Assembly (NCBI GenBank): GCA_000004695.1
Contig: CM000150.2
Span: 3,808,001 to 3,872,000, forward strand
Direction of reading: 5' to 3'
From: Dictyostelium discoideum
Lineage: Eukaryota
DNA length: 64,000 bases
Shown in pieces: positions 11,109 through 64,000 of this stretch. Numbering within the stretch: position 1 is the stretch's first letter; every line of letters begins with the position of its first letter. A program made the position numbers and the translations under genes. The notes beneath the pieces were generated by a model that saw nothing but the letters and a program-made list of their open reading frames with translations, ran no database searches and was not told where the DNA came from.

Positions 11109-11514
11109 TTTGAAAAAATTAAAAAATTAAAAAATAAAAAAAAAAATAAAAAAAATAAAAAATTCACTCAGTGTGGGCAGTACTGTTGTCAAAACAAATC
11201 ATTTTTTTTCTGCATGATGGTATTCAAATATATAACCCAGGGTCATATTTATTTTTTGAAAATGTTTTTATTTTTTTTTTATTTTTATTTTTTAAAATTA
11301 GTGTAGAATAAAAATAATAATTTTTATAAATTCTCCACTACTTTTTGATATGGCTTGTAAATATTGCTTTGTTTTGATGGTTTTGAAATCCAAATATTAT
11401 TATGAATAAAGTTTGTAGTACTAGAAAAAAAAAAAATAAAAAAAAAAAAAAATTAAAAAAATAAAAATAAACATAAAATAAAAATAATATCGATCTATTT
11501 TAAAAACCCTGATT

Positions 11515-11546
<32 letters not shown>

Positions 11547-40908: not shown

Positions 40909-42149
40909 TTAAAACCAAACATCTTGTAAATATCTACCATGAGAACTCATATCGTCAATGAATTGTTGAGCAGAGTTATCATCTTTTGAACCAAATTCTT
41001 TAATGATTGATAAGAGGGCTTGTTGTACAGCTTTGGACATATTTCTACCATCACCACAAACGTAAAAGTAGGCACCTTTATTTAATAACTCCCAAACCTT
41101 TTCTTTATGCTCCAATAATTTATTTTGTACATAAACTTTTTGAGAAGTTTTTCTTGAGAAAGCTACAACCAAATCACCTAAAACTGAGGATTGATGATAT
41201 TGTTCCAACTCTTCTCTGTAAATATAGTCGACTGTATCGGAACGACAACCAAAGAATAAGAGTGATTGTTGTTGTTGTGAATGATTTCTATGTTGTAATT
41301 CTTGAAGGAAACCTCTGAAAGGAGCTAAACCAGTACCAGGACCAACCATAATGACAGGTTTTTGTTCGGTGGCGGCAGATGGTAATTTAAAGTGAGATTC
41401 TCTAACAAATAATGGAACTTTATCGCCAACTTTTAAGTGAGATAACCAAGTAGAGGCGACACCATTATGAGCTCTTTGATTACCAGTTGTGAAATTAACC
41501 ACTACAGAGGTAATTGAAACAACGCCATTCTTATTGTGAGGTGAAGAGGAGATAGAGTACATACGGGCTGGTAGACGTGGTGTAAATTCTAAAAAGTGAG
41601 CAATCAAAGGTTGAAGACCTGGGAAAGATTCTAAAAGATCGACGACACCACGGAAATCATTTTTAATATATTTATTGTATTCTTCGTTTGCTTCTTCGGT
41701 TGCTAAATATAATAATCTCTTCTTTTCCTCTTCGTTAGTGGTTGACTCTGCCAATGCACGTAACACTGATTTACGTACTGGATTTGTAATATCCAAATGT
41801 TCAGAGAATGCCCTTCTAATTGTCATTGGACCAAAGCTTGCTTTAATAACTGAACCCTCTTGATCAATTGGTACCAATGCAATCATATCATCACCATTGA
41901 CACCCAAACGCTTTATCAATTGTTCAACCAATTTACTATCATTAATTGGGAATACACCTAAATGATCACCTGTTGTATAACTAACTTCATCACCCAATTT
42001 AAATTCAATATGTCTACATGATCTATCAGATTCATTTGAATGTAATTCTCTATTTTCTAAAACCTCTGCATAATATGGATTTTTCATATCATAAATTCTT
42101 TTTTTTTTAAAAAAAAAATAAAAATAATAAAAAAAAAATAAAAATTATT

Positions 42150-42230
<81 letters not shown>

Positions 42231-43073
42231 TTTAAATTTTATTAAAATATATACATACACTTTATTATCAGTTGATAATTTTGGTTTTAATGGAGTTGAA
42301 ACGATTTTAATGAAAGGATCATTAATATCTTTACTATCTTGATTTAAAGTTACCATTCTAAATCTTGGTACGAATTTATCATCTTCAGTTGATTTTAATT
42401 CATAACCTAAGAATTTACAAACTACAGGCCACATATCTTTTTTCCAACGATTGAAATCTTCTTCAAGAGTTGCATCATCATCACCTTCACCTCTTTCAAA
42501 GACTCTTTTACCACCTAATTCTTCCATTCTTCTATCGATAACACGTGCAACGGCATTGTAATGTTCATAAGTTTTATTACCTAAACCAAATACAGTGAAT
42601 GGTACACCATTGAGAAGATCGGTTGGACGTTCATCATTTGTTAACCAAAGGTAGAATTCTTTGGCATTATCGGTTGGATCACCTTCGCCATGAGTTGCAA
42701 CTAAAAACATTACAAAACTTTCACTATGTAATTCTTGTTCGTGTTCATAGGATTCCAAGTCTACAACTTCACATGGGATACCAATCTTTTTACATTCTTT
42801 TTCAATGATTCTTGAGAAATCTTCGGCTGTACGTGTTTGTGTACCAAAGAATATTTTCATCACCTTTTTACCGTCTTCATTCTTTGTGATTGTCTTTTTT
42901 GGTTTTTGTGCTTCTTTGTTGATCTTATTGTTTGGTTTATTAAATACTGGTGGTGGTGGTGGTGGTTTGTTCATATAAAGGTATGTACCCACTATAACTG
43001 CAACAATAATAATCGCTCCTAAATTATCTAAAATTAAAACTTCAATAAAATCAATTGATTCTAAAATTTCCAT
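40909..43073 (-). CDS. redB: NADPH-cytochrome P450 reductase (membrane-anchored FMN/FAD/NADPH diflavin reductase), ~667 aa; 2 exons approx 43073-42259 and 42097-40909
   Basis: The N-terminal anchor and flavodoxin domain are in exon 1. Exon 2 begins …IYDMKNPYYAEV (compare rat PFDAKNPFLAAV) and carries FAD/NADPH motifs (RMYSISSS, GPGTGLAPFRGF, YVCGD) and the CPR C-terminus …LQDVWF*. The donor is GTATGT at 42258, and the intron contains a long (ATT)n tract. The symbol follows Dictyostelium naming and is an inference. Confidence 0.85.
42153..42230. repeat. (ATT)26 microsatellite inside the CPR intron
   Basis: Direct reading. Translated on the minus strand it gives the poly-N seen at the end of the track ORF 42084-43073. 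Confidence 0.9.
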
Positions 43074-44019: not shown

Positions 44020-44050
<31 letters not shown>

Positions 44051-44142
44051 ATTCAAGACAATATTTAACCAATTCATCAAAATTTGGTAAACCTAAACCA
44101 GTTACTGGATCCCAACCACTTTTAGATTTAAAACCATTGGTA
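43941..44142. repeat. Tandem ~100-bp duplication: a degenerate copy (43941-44030) of the last ~30 codons + stop of the adjacent sedolisin gene, separated from the genuine 3' end (44049-44140) by a T-run
   Basis: 'gacaatgtttgaccaattcatcaaaattggtaaacctaaaccagttactggatcccaaccacttttagatttaaaaccattg' and 'gacaatatttaaccaattcatcaaaatttggtaaacctaaacc...aaaccattg' are about 90% identical. The upstream copy has a 1-bp deletion and a Leu-Glu-stop to 'stop-earlier' changes, so it is a non-coding pseudo-fragment. Confidence 0.7.
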
Positions 44143-45851
44143 CAACATTTATAATTATTTTCACCAAAGTCAATATCAAGGAAAGAGTTTGGATGATCTC
44201 TTGCAATTTTATAAAGTAATGGATTGAAAAGACCAATTGGACTTTGATTTTTTTGTAATCTTTGGTCGTTAATTAATGATAATAAGCCGGCAATAATTGG
44301 AGCTGATGCAGAAGTACCTCCAATTGGCATCAATTTGTCTTTGTAGAGTATAACGACATTTTCTGAGAAAGATGAGATATCAGGGAAACCTCTTCCAGAT
44401 TGATTGTAGAAACTAGAGAGAGAACCGTTTAACCACTCGATATAGGAAGAACATTCATCCACTTGATACCATGGACGGGAGAAATAGTTACTAAAACCAC
44501 CACCAGATATTTCATCACCAATGATACTGCCATCCTTCTTTTTAATTACCCCCCCAACTGCCAATACAAAACGGGAAGATGCTGGCCAACCTGGTGAAAA
44601 TGAATCACAATCATCATTACAACCAACACCAAAATCACCACTTGAGAATACTATTGTTCTACCCATTGCTGCGTATTTCTTAAATTCAGTATCTACACGA
44701 TCAGTATATGCCAATCCAATGGAAGATTCATCATCACCATAGGAAATACTATGAACCAATGGTAATTTTGGATTTGATGATAAATCAACTAACCAATCTA
44801 AAAATGGTTCTTGACCTTCATGTAACCCACCTGTACTCACGATCCAAGTGGGTACATCTGGTGCCATTGCCATGATGTATTGAATATCCAATGCCGTTTC
44901 AATACCTGGATTCAAATTTTGATTTGGTCCAATTATATTATCGACTTGAGATGGTTCCAAACCAAAACGATATTGAAAAATTTTTAGATCACTTGGTGAG
45001 AAATACTCTTTAAGAAACTGAGCGATAGCTTGAGAATTACCAAGATGAGTTGAATTGGTACTGGTTTGACTTACATTCATCTCCTTTCTAATTAAATCTG
45101 GTGATAAGTATGGATCACCATTTCTTGCAGCAACTTTCTTATCATTAAATGATTTAATTTGTTTATTATTTCTTAATGATTCTAATTCATATCCAATACC
45201 ATTAACTTTACCACCACCACCACCACCAGCACTACCACTGCTTTCTTTTGGTCTGGGTGACAATAATGGTAAATGATTTACACCACCAATGAAATCAATA
45301 TGATCATAAAGTTCTCTTGGAATAGTGTAAGGATCAAGAGAACGAAAGAATGATTGTTTGGATAATTTATGTACCATTTTATTATATCTAACCGATAGTA
45401 ATTCTTCTGCTTTATCAATAGAAACAATGGTACGAATGAAATCGCCGCTTTTTGTCACTGTGAATTCATTTATATCATTTTCAATTAACCAATTCTTTAC
45501 AGCATCAATTGATTCATCCAATGGTTTAACCCATTCTTTAATCTCTTCAAAAGTTTTATAACTTCCATACAATGAATCATTTGGATCACTAACTCTCCAC
45601 ACGAAATCTTCCAACTCAACGATATTTCTTTGTCTAATTCCAAATGTTAATTCAATTTGGGCGGAAAATATATTTTCAATTTCTGTAATTTTCCAGACTT
45701 TCTTATTCAATGAAATTGGCTTGGAATGTTCAACAAATCTTCTTAACCTTTGGGGTGTCAAATGTTTTTTATTTTTAATTTTTTTACAATTTACATTTGA
45801 AATAAATAAAATGAATAAAATTATAATTATTAAATTAAATTTAATATTCAT
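44049..45851 (-). CDS. tpp1: Tripeptidyl-peptidase I / sedolisin (peptidase S53) with signal peptide and pro-domain, single exon, 600 aa
   Basis: The N-terminal signal is MNIKFNLIIIILFILFISNVNC. A pro-peptide region and an S53 catalytic domain with the catalytic Ser motif 'GGTSASAP' follow, and the acidic residues are conserved (…SGDFGVGC…). Confidence 0.85.
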
Positions 45852-47246: not shown

Positions 47247-49504
<2,258 letters not shown>

Positions 49505-50989: not shown

Positions 50990-51045
<56 letters not shown>

Positions 51046-51397: not shown

Positions 51398-53680
51398 ATG
51401 TTTTTAAAAAAATTACTTAAAGGTAGTTCAAATTCTACTAGACCAAGAGGCGCAACATTTAATGGAATTTATACAGGTGGTGATAATTTAAGTGGCTCAT
51501 CAGAACAAAATTATAATAATAGTTTGACAACTTCAACAAAGCAAACAAATAGGCAAACATTATTATTAAAATCAATGGAATATATTAATGGGTCAAGTAC
51601 TTATTATGGGAATTATATGGATTATTTTGATATTCCAGTTCAATTATTTGTTGGTGGTGAACAATCTGAAATTTATCCAATGTTATCATATAATCAAAGT
51701 TTAAAATCATTAATATTGGATTTCAATAAAATTACAGAAATACCCGATTGTATTACACTACTTCCAAATTTAAATCATCTTTCATTGGCAGCAAATCAAT
51801 TAACACATGTGCCTGAATTTCTCTCACAATTAAAATCATTGGAAACTTTTGAAATTGGTATTAATCAATTCACTTGTTTCCCTTTAAACGTTTGTAAAAT
51901 TAAATCATTAACTTCTCTTCATTTAGAAACAAATAATATTAAATCATTACCTGAAGAATTTTTAAATTTAGTAAATTTAAAGGTTTGTTTTTTTTTTTTT
52001 TTTTTTCAATTATTTATTTTATTTAATTAATAAAACTAAAATTATATTTATTAATTCTTATTTTTTTATTTTATTTTTTTTTAGGATTTATCATTATTTG
52101 ATAATCAATTAAAAGAAATACCAGATTCATTACCAAATAATATTGAAAAATTAAATTTAGGATGTAATGATATTAGTAGTTCAAAATCAGATTCATTAAT
52201 TAGAATATCACATAGTTTAACAACATTAAATTTATCAGAGAATAAAATTGAAGAGTTGGATGAATCATTATCATGTTTAGTTAATGTTAAAACGTTAATG
52301 TTGGATTGTAATATGATTAAAGTTATACCAGGATCAGTATTAGGTTCATGGAAATCATTGGTAACTTTAAATTTACCACATAATTTAATTTCAGATTTAC
52401 CCCCAGAGGTAATTTTATTAAGTAATCTTAGAATAATTGATCTTAGAGGTAATAATTTTGAAAATTGTAAAAAATTAATACCAACTGAATCTTCCACACC
52501 TATTTCATTTAAAATTGAAGATTTTATTCAAAATAAAGAAAGAATTAATTCATTAAAATTTGATAATATTGAAATTTTACCAACAACAAATTCAATAATT
52601 AATAGTAACAATAATAATTATGAAGTTATAACAACAACAGCAACAACTAAAAATATAATTGAGAATAAAGAAGATAATGATGAAAAATTATTAAATAATT
52701 CAACAATTTCAATAGTTTTGGATTCAAATAATAAAAGTGAAAATAATGAAATTAATGAAAATAATCAACTATTAACTACTGATGATGATTATAATACCGA
52801 TAAAAATGATTCATTTACCGAGAGTGAAGATATAATTAAAAAAATTCAAATTGAATTAGATTCAATTGAAATTCAACAAAAACAACTTTTACTTAAACAA
52901 ATTAAATTAAAAGAGAAAATGAAAAAAGAGAAAAATAAATTATTTAAATTTCAACAACAAGAAATAATACATCAAGAACAATTACCACAATCAAAACCAG
53001 AAAATGAAAAATTAACAAATATACCAGAACAACAACAAAAACAACAACAACAACAACAACAACAAGAAGTTCAACAACCAATAATAACACTAACAAAATC
53101 AACAAGCAGTAAAGTGGAAGTTGAAATGATTGTACCAAATCAATTAATATTTTGGCAATCAATTGTACCAGATTTAATTATTGATAAATTGTATTTAGGT
53201 TGTAGAGAATGTGCAATGAATAAATCTTGGTTAAAAGATAATAATGTTACTCATATTTTAACTGTTGCAAATTTTAAACCATTATATCCAGATGTATGTT
53301 AATTTTATTTATTATTATTAATTATTATTTCCAATAATTTTAAAAAAATATTAATTTGTACTATTATTTTTATTAATAATTTTTAGTTATTTAAATATTT
53401 AATAATAAATATTGAAGATGTTGATGAAGCAAATATTTATCAACACTTTAAAGAAATGAATGCGTTTATTGATGAAGGTAGAGAAAAAGGCGGAGTTTTA
53501 ATTCATTGTAGAGCTGGTGTTAGTAGAAGTGCAAGTGCAACCATGGCTTTTATAATGATGAAAAATTCTTTGAAATTCCAAGAAGCATTTGATATCACTA
53601 TAAAAGGAAGACCTAGGATTTATCCAAATATTGGTTTTATAAACCAATTAAAAAAATTTGAAAAGGATTTATTTAAATAA
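51398..53680 (+). CDS. MPL-type protein: leucine-rich repeats + C-terminal dual-specificity (MAP-kinase) phosphatase, ~695 aa; 3 exons approx 51398-51982, 52085-53293, 53387-53680
   Basis: LRRs are LxxLxLxxNxL (LPNLNHLSLAANQLTHVPEF…). The DUSP domain is split by the last intron (…LYPDV|LFKYLIINIEDVD…) and has the active site HCRAGVSRS. Donors are GTTTGT and GTATGT, acceptors are TTTAG, and all phases are 0. The N-terminus has an RPRGATF (RxRxxT) site. Confidence 0.8.
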
Positions 53681-53765
53681 AAAAAATAAAAAAAAATAAA
53701 AAATTATTAAATAATTCATTTACTTTATTTTATTTTTATTATAAAAAAAAAAAAATTAATGATTA

Positions 53766-53805
<40 letters not shown>

Positions 53806-54238
53806 GATCGAAATAATTTTTTATTTTATTTTATTTTTTTTTTTTTTTTTAATTAATTAATTTTTTTTTTTTTTTGAGACATAAAAAATTAATTAATTTA
53901 AAGATTAGTTTTTTTAAATCTAAATTGGAAATTAATTTCTTGGCGTCCAATTAAATCAATTTAATTATTTTTTAAATAAAATGGGATGGATTAAAATAAA
54001 TTATTTGTAGGAGAGTTATTTTAGAAAAAGTGTTAATATTTCATAATCAAACCACTCGTGTGTTGATCAAAAAAAATTTTTTTTCTTTTTTTTTTTTTTT
54101 TTTTTTTTCCTTTTTTTTTATTTTTTTTTTTTTTTTTTCCTTTTTATTTTTTTTTTTATTTTTTTTTTTTCAATTAAAATTTTTTAAAACAACTGCCACA
54201 ATATATCTATTTTTATTTTTTTTTTTTTGTGTGATATT

Positions 54239-54284
<46 letters not shown>

Positions 54285-54623
54285 TTTTTTTTTGTAATTA
54301 CAATAAATCAACAATAATTTAACAATAAAGAATAAAATAAAAAAATAAAACCAAATAAAAAAAAAAAAACCAAATAAAAAATAACAACCAGATATAAAAA
54401 ATAACAGCGGGATAAAAAATAAAAAAAATAAAAAAAAATTATAAAAAAAAAAAAAATTAAAAAAAATTTATAAGATAAAAAAAATAAAAATAAAAAATAA
54501 AATAGACTAATAAATCATATAAATAAATAAATCATATAAATAAATAAATTATATAATAAATAAATCATATAAATAAATAATTAAATAAAATAAATCAAAT
54601 AATTAAATAAAATAAATTAAAAA

Positions 54624-57313
54624 ATGATATTTAAAAAATTATTTTCAAAAGGTAGTACATCACCAACAACAAGACCAAGAGGAGCTACATTTAGTGGTAC
54701 ATTTCCAACAGATGTATTAAGTGATGATGGTAGTGGTACCAATACAAATGGTTTATCAAATTCAACAACCAATCCATCATCAATACATTCAACACCAACA
54801 ACACCAACAACAACAGCATCAACTAATTTAACAAATTCAAATAAATTATCAACATTGGCACCAATTACAAATGGAAATCGATCATTAAGAGGTAGTAAAG
54901 ATGGTAGTGGTACTACAAAAGAGAGTAAAAAAAAAGTATTGACACTAAATGAAAAACAAAAATTATTATTAAAATCAATGGAATATATAAAAGGATCAGG
55001 TACTTATTATGGTAACTATATGGAATTCTATGAAATTCCAATTCAAATCTATGTTGGTACTGAACCATCTGAAACCTATCCATCATTATCATACAACACA
55101 GAGTTAAGATCATTAATATTGGATTTCAATAAAATCACTGAAATTCCTGAACAAATAGGCCTCCTTCCAAATTTAAAACATTTATCATTGGCTGCAAATC
55201 AATTGTCTCAAGTACCTGAATTTCTCTCACAATTAAAATCTTTAGAATCTTTAGAACTTGGTATTAATCAATTCACTAGTTTCCCTTTAAATATTTGTAA
55301 AATTAAATCATTAACTTTACTTCGTTTAGAAACAAATAATATTAAATCATTACCTGATGATTTTATAAATTTAGAAAATTTAAAGGTTTGTTTTTTTCAT
55401 TATTCTTTATTATTATTTTTACATATTTTAATTTATTAATTTTTTTTTTTTTTTTTAAATTTTAATTTTAGGATTTATCATTATTAGATAATCAATTAAA
55501 AGAAATACCAGATTCATTACCAAATAATATTGAAAAATTAAATTTAGGATGTAATGATATTATTAATTCTTATTCTAAATCATTAATTAGAATATCACAT
55601 AGTTTAACAACATTAAATTTATCAGAGAATAAAATTGAAGTTTTAGATGAATCATTATCATGTTTAGTTAATGTTAAAACATTAATATTAGATTGTAATA
55701 TGATTAAAGTTATACCAGGATCAGTATTAGGTTCATGGAAATCATTGGTAACTTTAAATTTACCACATAACTTTATTTCAGATTTACCTGCTGAAATAGT
55801 TACATTGGATAATCTTAGAATCATTGATCTTAGAGGTAATAATTTTGAATTTTGTAAAAATTATCCATCAAGTGAATCTTCATCAATTCTATTCAAAATT
55901 GAAGAGTTTATAAAAGATAAAGAGAAATTAAAATCTTTAATTTTAAAAGAAAATCTTGAAATTTTATCAAAATTAAAAGATGATAATTCAACTACTACTA
56001 CCACTAATATCAACTCTAATCTTGATGTACCAATTATTATTACAACAAATATTGAAACAATACCAACAACATCAACAACAGCTACAACAACAGAAACAAC
56101 AAATGATATCACCTTTAAAATATCAGATATAACTGAAATAATAGAAAAAACAGACACAACAACAACAACAACAACGACAAACCAAACCGATAATGTAAAA
56201 TTAGAAGAAAAAGTATATGAAAAACAAGAGAATGACGAAAATAATAGTGTAACATTAGAAACAACTACTACAATATCTATTGCATCTGATAATACTGATG
56301 AGGCATCTATTCAAATACCCCAAAAGGAAGATGGAGATAAAGAAAATCTTGAAAACGATGATAAATTACTACAAGAATCATTTTCTGAAAATAACAATAA
56401 CAATAACAATGAAAAACAACAAGAACAACAAGAGAATCCATTAAAAGAAAGCCAAGGAAAGATTCAGCAACTTGAAGAGGAATTAGAAAAACTTGAACAA
56501 AAACAACTTGAATTAAAAGATAAAATACGATTAGAGAAAATTAAATACCAAGAGATTCAACAACAATCTCCAAGATTATCTCAACAAGAAAACAATCAAG
56601 AAGCTATTGTTGTTAATACACAACCATCATCTCCACCACCAACAATTATTGTAAATGAACAAAAATCAGAGAAATTAGAAAATGAAAAACCAACTAAAAG
56701 AGAACAGCCAATGGTTGTAGTTACAAAAAATAATAATAAGGCAGAAGTTGAAATGACAGCACCTAATCAATTAATATTTTGGCAATCAATTGTACCAGAT
56801 TTAATTATTGATAAATTGTATTTAGGTTGTAGAGAATGTGCAATGAATAAATCTTGGTTAAAAGATAATAATGTTACTCATATTTTAACTGTTGCAAATT
56901 TTAAACCATTATATCCAGATGTATGTTAATTTTATTTATTATTAATTATTATTATTATTTATTTCCAAACTTGTATTAACTTTTTTATTTTTTTTTTTAT
57001 ATAAATTTCATTTTTTTAGTTATTCAAATATTTAATTATTAATATTGATGATGTTGATGAAGCAAATATTTATCAATATTTTAAAGAGATGAACACGTTT
57101 ATTGATGAAGGTAGAGAAAAAGGCGGAGTTTTAATTCATTGTAGAGCTGGTGTTAGTAGAAGTGCAACTGCAACAATCGCTTATATAATGATGAAAAATT
57201 CAGTTAAATTCCAAGAAGCATTTGATATCACCATAAAAGGTAGATCTAGAATTTATCCAAACAGAGGGTTCCTTAACCAATTAAAAAAATTTGAAAAAGA
57301 TTTATCAAAATAA
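54624..57313 (+). CDS. Second MPL-type LRR + dual-specificity phosphatase paralogue, ~834 aa; 3 exons approx 54624-55385, 55472-56920, 57020-57313
   Basis: The exon-intron architecture and intron phases are the same as the upstream paralogue. LRR and DUSP blocks are near-identical (active site HCRAGVSRSATAT; terminus …FKPLYPDV|LFKYLIINIDDVDE). The N-terminal Ser/Thr-rich region and the Thr/Gln-rich linker have diverged. The N-terminus also has RPRGATF. Confidence 0.8.
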
Positions 57314-57845
57314 AATAAAATAAAATAAAATAAAATAAACAAATACTTTCTAAAAAAAATTTTTGTTGGTTGTTCATTTATTTATAGTCTTTAAATTACA
57401 GGGACTTAATTTTTTTTATTGCCAAGATGCTGTTTTGGTTAAAGCGGCTGTGAATTTTATTTAAATTATGTTAAATATTATTTGACACAAATTTAAGATA
57501 ATTTTATATTGTAATGAAGTGAAAGAGGTTTCATTAGAAATGTAATGATTCACCATATTAAAACTAATATGGATTTATGTATTGATATATATTAATATGG
57601 AAATCATAAGGATCATAATATAATTCAGTTACTAGTCATAATCGACTTTAGAAGGCTAATCCTGGTACTCAAAAATTATAATATAAATACTCTAAAAGTA
57701 TTAAATAAAAATCATTGTGGTTTCTTTTCTATATTAAATATACAAATAAACTATTCATCTCTTATTTGTTTATCTTACTATATTAATTATATATTAACTT
57801 CAATAAAGAACTAAACCTGATTTTTTATTCAAAAAATATCACAAA

Positions 57846-57917
57846 TCCTTGTTGGTCTAGTGGTGAGGATTTTCGCCTGTCACGCGAAAGGCCCGGGTTC
57901 AATTCCCGGACAGGGAG
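57846..57917 (+). tRNA. tRNA-Asp (anticodon GUC), 72 nt, followed by a T5 Pol III terminator
   Basis: The cloverleaf was folded by hand. The acceptor stem is TCCTTGT/ACAGGGA with discriminator G. The D-arm is GTCTAGTGGTGAGGAT. The anticodon stem TTCGC/GCGAA has loop CTGTCAC (U33, GTC, A37). The T-arm is CCGGG-TTCAATT-CCCGG (GTTCAAT = T-loop). It resembles eukaryotic tRNA-Asp/Glu genes. Confidence 0.85.
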
Positions 57918-57932
57918 CTTTTTGGAATAAAA

Positions 57933-59146
57933 CTAAAATCCGAACTTCCGATTATTTATATTGCTATTCATATTATTAATAAATTTTGAATTTTGTTTTT
58001 TCTTTCTAATAATATAAATAGTTGAAATTAAAACTACAGCAACAAAAGCAGTACACCCAACGACGATACCAGCTATTTTTGTTCCAGATAAACTACTATT
58101 TGATTTTGAACAAATTGAATTATTATCTTCCGTGGAAGCTGAAAGTAATACTGAAAAGTCTGGATCTATTTTTGCTGATTTTTTAAAATTTGGGATTTCA
58201 ATTCCAATAAAAGATTGAGATTGATAAGAACTTTCAATAGGATTGAAAGTAGAATCTAATAATACATTTTCAATTGATTTGGCATTGTTGTCTATTAAAG
58301 CTCTTTTTATGAAACGACCATAGACTGAATGATTATCAACTTGAACCTTAGATAATTTGAATCGTCACCATTAGAAGTATTACCAAATTGTTTGGATGAA
58401 CAAATATCTTTGGTCTTTGATGATTCTAATAAAGTTGACATTACCAATTGTAAAGTATTCAATTGGCTTTTAAAATTGTACGAAGTCATTTCAATTGTAT
58501 ATTTCAAGGTTGATGGGTTCATTATTAAATTTTGATTTGCAAATTGAATTGATTTGGTTTGATTAAACCATTCAATTGTTACACTAATGTTTGTTACTTT
58601 GTTTGAACCAGATATAATATTGGTAAAATATTGATTGTATGGTAATTCTGGATAAATAGCAGAAATACTATCATAGTATTGACCTTTTATTATTTTTAGT
58701 AAAAAGAATAAAAAAAAAAAATTAATTAATTATTTAAATTAAATTGGAAAACGGTATTTTTTTTTTCCTTACCAAATGGATTATTAATAACAAGATCTTT
58801 TTTATTTGAAATATTTGATATTGATATTGTCAATGAATCGATATTTGTTGTAGTTGTAAAGCCAGACATTGTAATACTCATAATATTTGTATTATGTACT
58901 ATTGATGATGTGCAAGATATTGAATAACTAACCCCAACTGAACTATCATAAAAAATTGATGTATCCAATCCTTCAAGTTTTAAATATCCTGCTATATTGT
59001 AAGCTGAAAAAGTATTACTAAAACCATTAACCAAAACAGGACTTAAAGTTAAAATATCCGTAGCTAAATTAAAATAATCTTAGTATATGTTCAAAACAGG
59101 GTATATAAAAAATGATAATAATAAAAATAATAATAAATAATAATAA

Positions 59147-59193
<47 letters not shown>

Positions 59194-59592
59194 TTCATAC
59201 CGATACAACTAAGAACAAGTTTAATTTTAGAAGATGTTAAAGTTAAGAGTTCAAGAGTGAATTGAGGGGATCCTTGAACACGAGTTATTGTTACATTTAA
59301 TAATGATGATGTTTGGTTTTGTGAAATTTTATTAATTGAAACAGTGTATGTGTTAATGATAGGTTGAAGGGTTTCTGTACCTATATTGGTTCCATTGTCA
59401 TTTGTGTTTAAGAAAAAAAAAGTAAAACTACAAAATCCATCAGCTGCCTTTGTATATTTTTTATGTGGGGTATTTATTGGTGAAACATCTTGAACTGTGA
59501 TTTCTGATTTACCATTTTCAACTAAAATTAACAAAATTAGAAATAAAAAAATTTAAAGAAATAAAAAAAAAGAATAATTTTTTATTAATCAT
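57933..59592 (-). pseudogene. Type I membrane glycoprotein-like gene (signal peptide, many NxS/T sites, C-terminal TM + basic tail), at least 3 exons, with two apparent frame discontinuities (possible pseudogene or sequence errors)
   Basis: The minus strand has a signal-like ATG exon at ~59592 (MINKKLFFFFISLNFFISNFVNF) that is out of frame by 1 with the downstream ORF 59521-59201 (…ENGKSEITVQDV…KLVLSCI). A GTATGA donor at 59200 opens an (ATA)n intron. The ORF 59034-58755 (…VINNPF|GTAAGG) follows, then ORF 58680-58307 ending SMVVS*. A +1-frame ORF continues 58380-57933 (…RFIKRALIDNN…TKIAGIVVGCTAFVAVVLISTIYIIRKKKQNSKF…RKFGF*). The stop codon lies 16 bp from the tRNA-Asp 3' end, convergently. 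Confidence 0.4.
59113..59192. repeat. (ATA/TAA)n microsatellite within the first intron of the minus-strand membrane-glycoprotein-like gene
   Basis: Direct reading. The GTATGA donor lies immediately upstream on the minus strand. Confidence 0.8.
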
Positions 59593-60369
59593 TTTTTTTT
59601 TTATCACCAATTTTTAAAATAAAAAAAATAAAATAAAGTAAATTAAAAAATAAAATTGTTAATTTTAATATTTTTTATAATTTTATTGGTGACTAATCTT
59701 TAGTGATGAAATCGGTTATTTTTTTTTTTTTCCCCGAGATATTTTGGACTTAATTTTATATGGTTTTGGAAAAAAAAAAATAATAGAATAAATACAAAAT
59801 TTATATATTTTTTTTTAAAAAAAAATCACAATAAAATTGTTTTTTAATTTATTTTTTTTTATTTTTTGGTTGTGTTTTATTTGTTTTTTTTTTTTATTTT
59901 TTTTATTTTTTTTGGTTGTGTTTTTGTTTTATTTTTTTTTTTTATTTTTTTTCTTATTTTTTTTTTTTTGAATTCAAAAAGGAATAAATTACTTTATCAT
60001 TATACTGAATTATCTTTTGTATTTGGTAATATAGAAACAACAGCACTTATTTTTAACTTTAATTATTATTTTTGGTTAAATATTATTAATATTAGTTAAA
60101 ATTTTAATAGATAATAGTGACTTTTAAATTTTTAGAAATAACTACGATAAAAATTTTTTCACTAGAAACAATTAATATAAAATAATTTTTTTTTGGTAAA
60201 AAAAAAGGAAAAAAAAATATCTTTGATATTTCTAAAAAAAAAATATTAAAAAATTAATTTGGAACAGTTTTTTTTTTTTATTTTTTTTTTTTTATTTTTT
60301 GTGAAAATCAAAAATATCTTTTTTTTATATCCATATTATTTGTGTTATTCAAAAAATATATTAAATAAA

Positions 60370-62952
60370 ATGACAAAAAAAAATAATAATTATTTAAAAC
60401 ATGATAAAGTATTTGAAAAAAGATCAAAAAATAAAAACCTTGATGATTTTGGTTTTGAACCAGAGAAACCAAAAAAACAAATTCAAATAAAAACCAAAGA
60501 AATAATAAACAATCAACAAGAAGTAAATTTATTTTGGAAAATATGGAAAAATAAATATTTAAAAAGTTTAATATTAAATTTTTTAAAAACTGAATTAAAA
60601 GTTGGAGTTTATAGTTATGATGAAATTGTTAGTGTTCAATGGCTATTACAAAATAATTATATAGAACTATTAAAATATAAAGCAAAAAGGGGTGATTTAT
60701 TAGTAGACTTTTTCGATTTCAATGTTAAAGAATCAAAAAATAAAGAACCAAAAAATCTTTATAAGCAAATTAAAAATGATTTTCAATTATATAAAGATTT
60801 ATTCAAAAATTATCCAATGTACTTCACCCAACCCTATTATAAATATAATTGTTACAAGAATCATATGGTTGACCCAATTAGATTTGGTTTACATTTTCCA
60901 ATGAGTATAAAAGAGTATACATACAGAGAATCGATAGTGAATGATAATGTGGCACCATTCTCGTTATTGGAGTATGATAGAGTTGATATATTTTATCTAG
61001 CAATTGATTTTGGGTCAGTTGATATAGCCAAATATTTATTCAATACAAAATTGAAATCTCAAAAAAATGATATCAATGGTAAAGTTTGGAAGAATCATAC
61101 ATTTACAAATACAACATCAAATCAAACTCCAAAACATTATAATATTATAAACAAAATCGTTAAATTATTAATCATTGATTTGAAATTAATACCACCAAAA
61201 GAAATGAATAAAATTTGTCTAGATATTTTCCATGTTGATATTAAATCATTAACAGTTTCAGAACTCTATGAATGTTGTTTCACCATAGCAATATTATTAG
61301 AACAAACTCAATTCTTTAAAGATTATCAACTTCAAATTTCAAAAGGTACAATTATAGATAAATATATGAACTATACAGGTTATTTACAAAATTATTTACC
61401 AAATCCTTTAATTGATTTCTTAACTACCACTCAAATAAATGAAATGAAATCCATTCATAATTTAAATCAAACTTATTTAAGCTCAAAAGTAATTTCAATT
61501 TCAAAAGATGATGAAAATGTTTATAAATTAATTAAAATGTTAATACCATTTACAAATTATTCAAAAAGTTATAAAAATAACTTTTTTTATTTTAACTTTA
61601 AATATTCAAATAATGGATTATTAAATTTTAAAATTGTAAAAAAAGTTGAAGATATTTCAATTACAGAGGAAGAAAACAAAACAAATACTACTACTAGTAG
61701 TTTAATTCTAAAAGATTTTAAATTTGGTGATTCAATTGAAAATGTAATATTTGGTAATCAAGAATCTATAAATTCAAAAATTGAAAGTTTCAATAGTTTC
61801 GAAGATTTTCAAGAATTTACCAATAATCCAATAACAATTAAACCAAAAATTTTAATGACTATTCTATTAGAATTAAATAGATTAGATTTAATAATTCAAA
61901 CTTTAGATATCCTATTAAATGAAATACCAAAAGAAAAACTTTTTCCAGTTGGTTTATTAAATCATATAAAATCAATTGAAATTTTTGATTACCTTTTAAA
62001 TATTAAATCATTAAAGGATGAATTTTCATTTAGAAATTGTTTAGAAAATGATAAAGGATTAAATAATATTATGGAACATATTAAAACAAATCATTTTAAA
62101 TTATATTTAGATTTTTTAAATTCAATAGACCCAATTTCAAATACACCAATACATTATTCTTTTACTTCTTTAAAGTTTATTTATAAGAATATTAAAGATT
62201 TTCATAATTTTTATGAAAGAGTTGATATATGGACAAGATGGGATTATTTTTCATTAAGTATGGATGATTTCATTGAATTGGTTAAATTCACTCCAATTAG
62301 TCAAAAGTATTCATATTATTGTGGTACCACACTTAGAAATGATGATATGGTGTTAAAAAGATTACATTGGGTAAAGAAATATAGATCCTATGATTTATTA
62401 AGTGGTAGATGTGATAGAGAATATGGTAATAAACTGGGAATAGATACTGAAACAACAATTCACATTTACGATTACCTTTTTGGTGATATGAATAAATTAA
62501 AGACATTTCAAATTCCAATGGGTTTAAATAATAATTATGATCATTTAATAAATGTTACAGTTGATAACTACTTTTCAAAGGTTTTTAAATTAATTGGTTC
62601 TCGTGGTGATATTAAAGCATTGGAAATCATTATGGAAATTTTACAAAGTAAACCTATTGTAACTAATCTTTATTATAATTTCCTTTATCGTAATGTATTA
62701 ACTCCTATCATAGTGAAGGCTGTCAAAAATTGTAAATTTAATGTATTTGACTTTTTAAAGTTAAACTATCCTTGGATATTTGATGATACTTTGATAAATA
62801 CTCAAGAATTTGGTGATGGACAATTTAAAAGATATCTCAATGTTATAGCTTTATTAAGTACTGCAAGCCAAGCTGCTTCTGAAAATATAACTTTTAAGCA
62901 ACTTTTAAGTTCAAATTATTTTAATGAAATTACAAGAAAAAAACTATATTAA
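60370..62952 (+). CDS. Large Asn/Lys/Ile-rich hypothetical protein (~860 aa), no recognised domain; likely start at ATG 60370 (MTKKNNNYLKHDK)
   Basis: The long ORF 60259-62952 has an N-terminal 37 codons that are a poly-T translation. The first plausible ATG is at 60370. Composition and codon usage are coding-like throughout. Upstream exons cannot be excluded. Confidence 0.5.
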   Translation: MTKKNNNYLKHDKVFEKRSKNKNLDDFGFEPEKPKKQIQIKTKEIINNQQEVNLFWKIWKNKYLKSLILNFLKTELKVGVYSYDEIVSVQWLLQNNYIELLKYKAKRGDLLVDFFDFNVKESKNKEPKNLYKQIKNDFQLYKDLFKNYPMYFTQPYYKYNCYKNHMVDPIRFGLHFPMSIKEYTYRESIVNDNVAPFSLLEYDRVDIFYLAIDFGSVDIAKYLFNTKLKSQKNDINGKVWKNHTFTNTTSNQTPKHYNIINKIVKLLIIDLKLIPPKEMNKICLDIFHVDIKSLTVSELYECCFTIAILLEQTQFFKDYQLQISKGTIIDKYMNYTGYLQNYLPNPLIDFLTTTQINEMKSIHNLNQTYLSSKVISISKDDENVYKLIKMLIPFTNYSKSYKNNFFYFNFKYSNNGLLNFKIVKKVEDISITEEENKTNTTTSSLILKDFKFGDSIENVIFGNQESINSKIESFNSFEDFQEFTNNPITIKPKILMTILLELNRLDLIIQTLDILLNEIPKEKLFPVGLLNHIKSIEIFDYLLNIKSLKDEFSFRNCLENDKGLNNIMEHIKTNHFKLYLDFLNSIDPISNTPIHYSFTSLKFIYKNIKDFHNFYERVDIWTRWDYFSLSMDDFIELVKFTPISQKYSYYCGTTLRNDDMVLKRLHWVKKYRSYDLLSGRCDREYGNKLGIDTETTIHIYDYLFGDMNKLKTFQIPMGLNNNYDHLINVTVDNYFSKVFKLIGSRGDIKALEIIMEILQSKPIVTNLYYNFLYRNVLTPIIVKAVKNCKFNVFDFLKLNYPWIFDDTLINTQEFGDGQFKRYLNVIALLSTASQAASENITFKQLLSSNYFNEITRKKLY

Positions 62953-63045: not shown

Positions 63046-64000
63046 TTATTTCTTTGACTTTGCAAAAGGATTATATTTCATTGGAACTTTAGCTGGTGGT
63101 TGATTTTTAGTATTACTATTGTTATTAAATTTATTTTTTTGTTGTTGTTGTTGTTGTTGTTGTGGTTGTTGTTGTTGTTGATTTCTGTTGATATTATTAT
63201 TATTATTATTTGACGCAACTAGAGTTCCTAGATCAGTATTATTACCTCCGCCACCATAATTATTAATATCAATTAAACTTGGGTCATTAAGGTTATTAAA
63301 ATCATAGTTATAACTATTATTATTGTTATTGTTATTATTGTTATTATTATTATTATTAAAACCATTGTTGTTATCATAACCACCATAGTTATTATTATTA
63401 TAGTTATTATTATTATTATTATTAAAACCATTGTTATTGCCATTGTTATAATTGTTGTTATAATTATTATTATAATTATTACCATTATTATTGCCATTGT
63501 TATAATTATTATTATAATTATTATTGTAATTGCTATTATAACCATTACCATTGTTATTGTTATTGTTGTAGTTATTTCCATTATTATAACTATTATTATA
63601 ATTATTATAATTGCTATTGTTATAATTATTGTTATTATTATAATTATTGCTATTATTACCATTATAGTTACCATTATTATTATAATTATTATTTTTATAA
63701 TTATTATTATTATTATAATTATTATAATTATTATAATTATTATTATTATTATTATTATTGTTATTATTATTGTTATTATTATTATTATTATTATTGTTAT
63801 TGTTATTATTATTGTTATTATTATTATATCTGTTATTATTATAATTTTGATTATTAAATCTATTATAACCAATTTGTTTATTATTATAACCACCACTACC
63901 AACATTACCAAAACCACCATTAAATTGTTGATTATCTTTATATTGATTTGAACCACCTAAAGAATTATTGACCATTCTATTGATAGCAGCATTTTGAGTA
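63046..64000 (-). CDS. Asn/Tyr/Gly-rich (prion-like) protein, C-terminal part; the ORF remains open past the right-hand window edge (partial)
   Basis: The 63046-63975(-) ORF is listed from an internal M, but the same frame has no stop up to position 64000 (…TQNAAINRMVNNSLGG…). Long NNYNN repeats lead to a poly-Gln then basic C-terminus (…KVPMKYNPFAKSKK*). Confidence 0.45.
   Translation of the reverse strand, partial: TQNAAINRMVNNSLGGSNQYKDNQQFNGGFGNVGSGGYNNKQIGYNRFNNQNYNNNRYNNNNNNNNNNNNNNNNNNNNNNNNNNNNNNYNNYNNYNNNNNYKNNNYNNNGNYNGNNSNNYNNNNNYNNSNYNNYNNSYNNGNNYNNNNNNGNGYNSNYNNNYNNNYNNGNNNGNNYNNNYNNNYNNGNNNGFNNNNNNNYNNNNYGGYDNNNGFNNNNNNNNNNNNNNSYNYDFNNLNDPSLIDINNYGGGGNNTDLGTLVASNNNNNNINRNQQQQQPQQQQQQQQKNKFNNNSNTKNQPPAKVPMKYNPFAKSKK

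Follow-up and report, generated by a model that had tools for sequence, protein, structure and literature searches.

Two neighbouring genes of Dictyostelium discoideum AX4 encode proteins that join leucine-rich repeats (LRRs) to a dual-specificity phosphatase (DSP) domain and that resemble each other far more closely in these parts than elsewhere. Does this resemblance mean that the genes arose by a recent tandem duplication, as a first-pass annotation of the DNA had proposed, or has something else kept parts of them alike? We examined the question in a 64,000-nucleotide stretch of contig CM000150.2 (positions 3,808,001 to 3,872,000 of the forward strand, assembly GCA_000004695.1), called the window below; all coordinates without a locus name refer to it. 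The genes are mpl2 and mpl1, and the evidence indicates that their near-identity results from recurrent gene conversion between copies of an older duplication.

Explicit spliced models place two plus-strand genes head to tail, 943 bp apart. By exact-sequence look-up, the 695-residue protein of the upstream gene is residue for residue MPL2 of D. discoideum AX4, and the 834-residue protein of the downstream gene is likewise MPL1; their annotated names are ‘MAP kinase phosphatase with leucine-rich repeats’ protein 2 and protein 1 (MAP, mitogen-activated protein). The pair is the already annotated mpl2 (upstream) and mpl1 (downstream), of which MPL1 is published. The gene models are as follows.

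51398-53680, plus strand: mpl2 gene (MPL2, 695 amino acids), spliced translation identical to XP_646403.2 / Q55CS8
51398-51982, 52085-53293 and 53387-53680, plus strand: mpl2 exons, with introns at 51983-52084 and 53294-53386
54624-57313, plus strand: mpl1 gene (MPL1, 834 amino acids), spliced translation identical to XP_646404.1 / Q55CS7
54624-55385, 55472-56920 and 57020-57313, plus strand: mpl1 exons, with introns at 55386-55471 and 56921-57019
53681-54623, no strand: intergenic spacer of 943 bp (3' end of mpl2 and promoter region of mpl1), extremely A/T-rich with long homopolymer runs

All six exons are in phase 0, all four introns have GT..AG ends, and both exon junctions are homologous between the genes (NLK/DLS and LYPD/LFKYL, with the slash at the junction). 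These models bear out what the first-pass annotation had said of the arrangement: a head-to-tail tandem about 0.9 kb apart with the same three-exon architecture, phases and intron positions. The second junction had been read as LYPDV/LFKYL, which is wrong by one residue, the GTA taken for valine being the start of the GTATGT donor. The assignment to MPL-type LRR and DSP proteins was right, given the exact matches to MPL2 and MPL1 and the Pfam LRR_8/LRR_4 and DSPc domains in both.

At the DNA level, mpl2 and mpl1 share two collinear blocks of 1041 and 595 alignment columns (E = 0).

51554-52583, plus strand: homology block 1 in mpl2, running through intron 1, 84.5% identical to mpl1 (pairs with 54957-55970)
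54957-55970, plus strand: homology block 1 in mpl1 (pairs with 51554-52583)
53117-53701, plus strand: homology block 2 in mpl2, running through intron 2 to about 20 bp past the stop codon, 89.6% identical (pairs with 56744-57335)
56744-57335, plus strand: homology block 2 in mpl1 (pairs with 53117-53701)

Outside the blocks, the upstream DNA, N-terminal spacer, linker and downstream DNA of the two genes have only low-complexity matches in common. The same is true when the intergenic spacer at 53681-54623 is compared with the region upstream of mpl2, with no other homology between them. The window is extremely A/T-rich (GC 0.16-0.35), and runs of about 30-60 A or T occur in the DNA around both genes (50990-51040, 53760-53803 and 54230-54295). 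All of the low-complexity ‘homology’ of the mpl flanks is spurious because of such long A/T homopolymer runs.

In the region before and including the LRRs the two proteins are 80% identical (DNA 84.5%), and in the DSP region 93% (exon 3 alone 89%; DNA 89.6%). The LRR blocks and catalytic exons had been described as near-identical, with HCRAGVSRSASAT set against HCRAGVSRSATAT, and both strings are found as quoted. The description needs a qualification, since truly identical stretches occur in sub-tracts only. Strong divergence of the N-terminal spacer and the linker had also been noted, and the low-complexity matches are indeed all that the copies share there.

The tandem is not peculiar to AX4. 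We compared the AX4 window with loci from D. firmibasis (L001), D. purpureum (L002) and three further D. discoideum-type assemblies (L003, L004 and L005). The mpl2-to-mpl1 tandem is also present in D. firmibasis and in the three D. discoideum-type assemblies, with the genes about 0.9 kb apart in each, and in all five assemblies it sits behind the same sedolisin-type peptidase and ATP synthase beta genes. Three phase-0 exons are found in 10/10 gene models derived from the five tandem loci, and the exon junctions of the D. firmibasis pair are those of the AX4 pair. Protein lengths vary across isolates in the low-complexity linkers (MPL2 694-716 amino acids, MPL1 828-834).

These observations bear on the possibility, raised in the first-pass annotation, that the downstream copy is a misassembled duplicate, or more broadly that this copy or its identical tracts stem from reads that were collapsed or joined chimerically when the AX4 reference was assembled. 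A perfect identity of 180 bp within a paralogue pair, described below, is a place where consensus errors could arise, and a second AX4-type assembly matches at the protein level only, so the silent sites lack a cross-check. However, the copies differ by about 10-15% in alignable DNA, and their flanks, linkers and N-termini are unrelated. The tandem recurs with conserved synteny in five independently assembled genomes. In other isolates, too, the paralogues differ at just 4-8 positions of this 180-bp stretch, and these isolates have shared-derived states of their own, so that more than one assembly shows the signal. We rejected misassembly as very improbable.

The distribution of silent changes within the AX4 pair is uneven. 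The proportion of silent sites that differ between the copies (pS) forms a mosaic, with values of 0.00-0.1 over MPL2 residues ~150-300 and 546-600 and 0.3-0.56 in adjacent, equally conserved segments. Heterogeneity across five segments is significant (chi-square p = 5e-5), as are the longest silent-free runs (permutation P = 0.003 and 0.008). In the LRR core (residues 151-300), pS is 0.088 between the AX4 paralogues versus 0.22/0.26 between orthologues (AX4-D. firmibasis); in the first half of the DSP domain (residues 546-602), it is 0.063 versus 0.33/0.22. The D. firmibasis copies have a zero-pS tract of their own at residues 607-643.

Trees of different segments conflict. The tree of S1 (residues 53-150), the least-converted segment, groups the MPL1 and MPL2 orthologues into separate clades at 93% and 99% bootstrap. 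In the S4 tree the AX4 copies are instead sisters of each other, and so are the D. firmibasis copies (97%). Among quartet-informative sites, 152 favour orthology, 40 favour a species-wise grouping of the copies and 8 follow the third pattern, and the 40 species-wise sites are clustered in two tracts.

The longest perfect match between the genes is 180 bp, comprising the last 156 bp of exon 2 and the first 24 bp of intron 2.

53138-53317, plus strand: 180-bp identical tract on the mpl2 side, probable donor of the AX4-lineage conversion
56765-56944, plus strand: 180-bp identical tract on the mpl1 side, probable recipient, with A at 56898 and G at 56818

The number of paralogue differences within this tract is 0 in AX4 and 4, 4, 8 and 16 in the other genomes. 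Several bases have histories private to one lineage and common to both copies. Base 53191/56818 is G in the two AX4 copies only and A in eight other genes; L004 has shared-derived bases of its own (53215 and 53302), and D. firmibasis has six. At 56898, which pairs with 53271, AX4 mpl1 has the mpl2-type A, whereas the base is C in mpl1 of L003, L004 and L005. At S4 silent sites AX4 mpl1 is nearer to AX4 mpl2 (pS 0.063) than to the mpl1 genes of other isolates (0.124-0.155).

Could the silent-site deserts instead reflect purifying selection on synonymous sites, through codon usage, splicing enhancers or mRNA structure, acting in parallel on both copies? The deserts do fall in the best-conserved parts of the proteins and border both introns, and the codon bias is extreme, 89% of third positions being A/T. 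Yet the same sites vary between orthologues (pS 0.22-0.33), the identity continues for 24 bp into intron 2, and AX4, L004 and D. firmibasis each have derived bases that are private to the lineage and occur in both of its copies. Species-wise quartet sites also outnumber the homoplasy pattern by 40 to 8. Synonymous constraint of this kind is very improbable as the cause, and we rejected it.

The mosaic pS, the conflicting segment trees, the quartet sites, the identity that crosses into an intron and the shared private bases together indicate that recurrent, lineage-independent interlocus (non-allelic) gene conversion explains the near-identity of the LRR and DSP regions. Two regions have been homogenised repeatedly, and independently in each lineage: the LRR core (MPL2 residues ~151-300) and, in the DSP domain, the first half (residues ~546-643). 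The latest event is probably an mpl2-to-mpl1 tract of 81-180 bp in the AX4 lineage, spanning the boundary of exon 2 and intron 2.

How old, then, is the duplication? The shared three-exon structure does not help: D. purpureum has a single LRR-DSP co-orthologue at a non-syntenic locus with both intron positions kept, and the structure is ancestral to the family and not evidence of recency. For trees with deeper outgroups, an exhaustive profile search supplied homologues from Polysphondylium violaceum, Tieghemostelium lacteum, Acytostelium subglobosum and Heterostelium album. MPL3 was recovered by no protein search (8000 LRR-dominated candidates; top 150 profile matches) and is absent from the trees. 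These trees place the D. purpureum gene outside the (MPL1, MPL2) clade, with 86% support from the least-converted segment only and 100% from more columns. They also recover both orthologue pairs, that of MPL1 and that of MPL2, at 96-100%. Because of these two groupings, we place a single tandem duplication, provisionally, between two splits: the earlier one that separated D. purpureum and the later one of D. discoideum and D. firmibasis. The promoters, N-terminal spacer and linker have since diverged along orthologous lines.

Distances within the pair agree with an old date. In the N-terminus and linker the nucleotide distance is about 0.1 between orthologues and 0.3-0.5 between paralogues (AX4, D. 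firmibasis). In the least-converted segment, paralogue pS (0.35-0.44) is similar to D. discoideum-D. firmibasis orthologue pS (0.35-0.41). Values of pS to D. purpureum are 0.5-0.85, near saturation.

A recent tandem duplication would account for the high identity of the LRR and DSP blocks by lack of time, with the low-complexity N-terminus and linker diverging fast by slippage, and the variable low-complexity lengths among isolates fit that account. It does not fit with the clear 1:1 orthologues of the pair in D. firmibasis, nor with paralogues that are more distant than orthologues in the N-terminus and linker. In unconverted sequence, moreover, paralogue pS equals or exceeds the interspecies orthologue value, and a pS of 0 next to one of 0.5 in equally constrained segments is incompatible with a single recent event. 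We consider a recent origin very unlikely and rejected it. The pair are true tandem paralogues, and their near-identity is not a sign of recent duplication: of the first-pass description the tandem part stands and the recency does not, since the pair predates the split of the two species, as the two orthologue clades in the S1 tree attest.

The first-pass annotation had also suggested dating the event by synonymous divergence (dS) in the LRR and DSP exons. Because near-identity in those exons comes from recurrent gene conversion, such a date would be falsely young, and conversion and near-saturated third positions would both distort it. Selection inferred from dS in the same exons would mislead in the same way.

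Several points weigh against the account of old duplication and recurrent conversion, or blur its details. The S2 tree pairs the D. discoideum paralogues at only 64%. The Fisher test on the quartet sites used tract boundaries that were set after seeing the data, so its P is optimistic; the contrast of 40 to 8 sites and the bootstrap values are unaffected. Only two sites, 53191 and 53271, give the AX4 event a clean polarity; 53215 and 53263 are ambiguous. Concerted evolution pulls paralogues together, and the duplication date could thus be too young. A still older duplication followed by loss in D. purpureum could also be envisaged. The D. purpureum locus is non-syntenic. Finally, no functional work on mpl2 was found in the literature searched.

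Even so, we are highly confident in the explanation as a whole, which joins the identification as mpl2 and mpl1, the domain layout and function discussed below, the older duplication and the recurrent conversion. Its evolutionary part (old duplication, recurrent conversion, an SPR site in MPL1 only and a genus-wide RPRGATF motif) was not found in the literature searched. Tandem paralogues that undergo conversion are ordinary behaviour, and the basic picture of two known genes is unchanged.

What do the conserved and the diverged parts of the proteins do? Both MPL1 and MPL2 have Pfam matches to LRR_8/LRR_4/LRR_14 and a C-terminal DSPc, and to no other family.

51701-52495, plus strand: MPL2 LRR array, ten repeats of about 23 residues, residues 102-332, interrupted by intron 1 (repeat register, Pfam, AlphaFold solenoid)
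55104-55882, plus strand: MPL1 LRR array, ten repeats, residues 161-391, interrupted by intron 1 (Pfam, repeat register)
52814-52978, plus strand: MPL2 linker segment, predicted to form a single long alpha-helix, coiled-coil-like, residues 439-493 (AlphaFold, predicted local distance difference test (pLDDT) 66-79)
53189-53665, plus strand: MPL2 DSP domain, residues 564-691, split by intron 2, with HCRAGVSRS at 53504-53530 (Pfam DSPc 1.2e-27, motif scan)
56816-57298, plus strand: MPL1 DSP domain, residues 703-830, split by intron 2, with HCRAGVSRS at 57137-57163 (Pfam DSPc 3.6e-28)

Each protein begins with a short, basic, conserved N-terminus that ends in RPRG[A/S]TF, followed by a low-complexity Ser/Thr-rich spacer. 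The LRR_8 matches in the two proteins have E-values of 8e-26 and 3.6e-27. A regular-expression repeat register gives ten LRRs in each, spaced 21-25 residues apart, with intron 1 at the start of repeat 5. The closest solved LRRs are those of Leptospira LIC proteins, LRRD1 and SHOC-2, with SHOC-2 chains matching MPL1 residues 154-270 at ~1e-37. The AlphaFold model of MPL2 was built on a shallow alignment of 8 sequences and has a mean pLDDT of 47.9, with the DSP domain poorly modelled; we used only its LRR solenoid (pLDDT 70-92 over residues ~100-280) and linker helix. A segment homologous to the helix can be aligned in MPL1 and D. purpureum. The linkers had been called Asn/Gln-rich in one copy and Thr-rich in the other, which is roughly correct: that of MPL2 is N/Q/K-rich and that of MPL1 E/T/N-rich.

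The best solved-structure matches of the DSP domain are catalytic domains of MAP kinase phosphatases (MKPs), at 1e-19 to 7e-24. DUSP6/PYST1 (1mkp, 6.8e-24) is nearest, followed by DUSP19, DUSP7 and DUSP10, and all three catalytic residues (general-acid Asp, nucleophile Cys, Arg) have their counterparts in the alignment with 1mkp. The HCRAGVSRS motif was found by motif scan in 11/11 Dictyostelium genes examined. Both proteins belong to the Dictyostelium MPL family by sequence identity and by its features: an N-terminal LRR array and a C-terminal DSP domain with HCx5R and the general-acid Asp. They share an MKP-type catalytic domain with aligned Asp, Cys and Arg with the classical MKPs (DUSP6/PYST1, DUSP7, DUSP10, DUSP1/4). 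Classical MKPs (DUSP1/4/6/7/9/10/16), in contrast, have an N-terminal rhodanese/CH2 domain with a kinase-interaction motif (KIM); in MPL1 and MPL2 no rhodanese/CH2 domain was found with Pfam at E <= 1e-3, and LRR families are all that precedes DSPc. Judged by sequence, MPL1 and MPL2 appear to work like MKPs without being classical members, as they lack the docking domain.

Since there is no rhodanese/KIM docking domain, targeting is most likely done by the LRR array, whose partner may be ErkB or, in the manner of SHOC-2, a Ras-family protein. SHOC-2 (SUR-8) has an LRR array like that of the MPLs, and both tie an LRR solenoid to a phosphatase of the Ras/MAPK pathway. They differ in that SHOC-2, the LRR scaffold of the SHOC2-MRAS-PP1C holophosphatase, brings in PP1C as a separate subunit and turns the pathway on through dephosphorylation of RAF, whereas the MPLs have the DUSP in the same polypeptide and are cited as switching ERK2 off. 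Binding of a Ras-family partner by the MPL LRRs may be suggested by this analogy. In PHLPP1/2, too, an LRR array precedes a phosphatase domain, and these proteins bring a kinase signal to an end; unlike the MPLs, they have a PP2C catalytic domain and a PH domain, with no catalytic homology to DSPc.

The founding MPL1 paper, by Rodriguez et al. in 2008 (Eukaryot Cell 7:958), is said to identify MPL1 as an ERK2 phosphatase needed for normal motility. Passages in later papers name Mpl1 and PP2A as the two phosphatases that act on ERK2 early in development (PMC10865387), and list Mpl1 as a putative MAPK phosphatase that is itself a target of ErkB and becomes phosphorylated when cells respond to folate (PMC6397043). 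From the architecture and these passages, the DSP domain probably dephosphorylates a MAP kinase, removing the activating phosphates from ERK2/ErkB.

Kinetoplastid LRR-DSPs also combine LRRs, SHOC2-like in their case, with a DSP domain, and the 2007 TriTryp phosphatome called this architecture kinetoplastid-only (PMC2175518). Our profile search found it across Amoebozoa, in Dictyostelia, Archamoebae (Mastigamoeba, Pelomyxa), Paramoeba and Ceratiomyxa. The likeness of the kinetoplastid and amoebozoan proteins is one of architecture, not demonstrated orthology. One 912-residue protein from a Logan assembly (P0196) has a RhoGAP domain fused ahead of the LRRs and DSPc.

Motif scans of the diverged and terminal regions gave three candidate phosphorylation sites.

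51440-51460, plus strand: RPRGATF in MPL2 (R15-F21), candidate phospho-acceptor T20
54672-54692, plus strand: RPRGATF in MPL1 (R17-F23), candidate phospho-acceptor T22
56567-56575, plus strand: MPL1-specific candidate site S620-P-R (QQQSPRLSQ), an ErkB-type [S/T]PR motif

The Akt/PKB-type RPRGATF that had been reported in both N-termini is present as written, and RPRG[A/S]TF fits the Akt/PKB (AGC kinase) consensus RxRxx[S/T]-hydrophobic. It occurs in 11/11 Dictyostelium genes examined, including that of D. purpureum with an extended N-terminus. All five MPL1 orthologues and D. purpureum keep RPRGATF. At MPL2 codon 19 (51452-51454) the isolates vary, with RPRGSTF in L003, L004 and L005 and RPRGATF in AX4. 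The motif is absent from the four deeper dictyostelid homologues, whose start is still M-x-x-KK-[LI]-[FL]-S. The QQSPR site follows closely on the linker helix; it is found in 5/5 MPL1 orthologues, in 0/5 MPL2 orthologues and not in D. purpureum; a passage of PMC6397043 assigns the [S/T]PR motif to ErkB.

Since the upstream DNA has no shared homology and the [S/T]PR site is restricted to MPL1 orthologues, regulatory divergence, or subfunctionalisation, of MPL1 and MPL2 is plausible. MPL1 may receive feedback from ErkB at S620, and both paralogues may receive AGC-kinase input at the RPRGATF threonine. The two motifs offer hypotheses for how two otherwise near-identical ERK2 phosphatases could be regulated differently. 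One could go further and suppose that conversion, limited as it is to the LRR core and the front half of the catalytic domain, is maintained by selection and does not merely follow from leftover homology. It would keep the surfaces for a shared partner (ErkB and/or a Ras-family GTPase) interchangeable while the regulatory tails diverge, with MPL1 drawn into ErkB feedback via QQSPR and both copies into PKB/PKBR1 signalling via RPRGATF. We think this unlikely; if true, it would make a direct link from TORC2-PKB to an ERK2 phosphatase.

The long identical tracts have a practical consequence. Knock-out or CRISPR constructs, primers for quantitative PCR and short reads meant for mpl1 can cross-hit mpl2, which bears on the published mpl1-null phenotype and on any redundancy with mpl2.

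The annotated D. purpureum protein, DICPUDRAFT_45524 (639 amino acids; GL870966.1, L002 9695-10000), appears to be truncated at its N-terminus. If the model is started at an in-frame ATG that lies 102 codons further upstream, it gains MIFKKLFS…TRPRGATF, like the MPL1 N-terminus. The annotation also has an additional, putative intron in the low-complexity linker (11274-11540).

Upstream of the pair lie a flavodoxin/FAD-type reductase fragment (42084-43073, minus strand), a sedolisin-type peptidase with Pro-kuma_activ and Peptidase_S8 domains (44049-45851, minus strand) and the ATP synthase beta subunit (48092-49504, plus strand). The order of these three neighbours is kept in D. firmibasis and the other isolates.

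Downstream, a tRNA-Asp(GTC) gene (57846-57918, plus strand) lies about 0.5 kb beyond mpl1 and is kept in 5/5 tandem loci (L001 13772-13843, L003 16260-16332, L004 16187-16259, L005 16340-16412). The DNA flanking it is strain-variable: 57415-57823 and 57951-59700 are both absent from L003 and L005, and 57951-59693 matches L004 16479-17165 and 20409-21553. L004 has an extra ~3.2 kb between those matches, within a called minus-strand gene of 1426 amino acids that has no Pfam hit, and the AX4 minus-strand open reading frames (ORFs) at 58726-59034 and 59091-59534 have none either. This DNA may represent an insertion associated with the tRNA gene, or else a gene that changes rapidly. Further downstream in D. 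firmibasis there is a chromo/integrase-type gene (L001 18055-21582). In the window, a large ORF of ~861-897 amino acids at 60259-62952 (plus strand) has no Pfam hit and has counterparts of 863-864 amino acids downstream in L003 and L005; beyond it lies an extremely Asn-rich ORF of 309 amino acids (63046-63975, minus strand).

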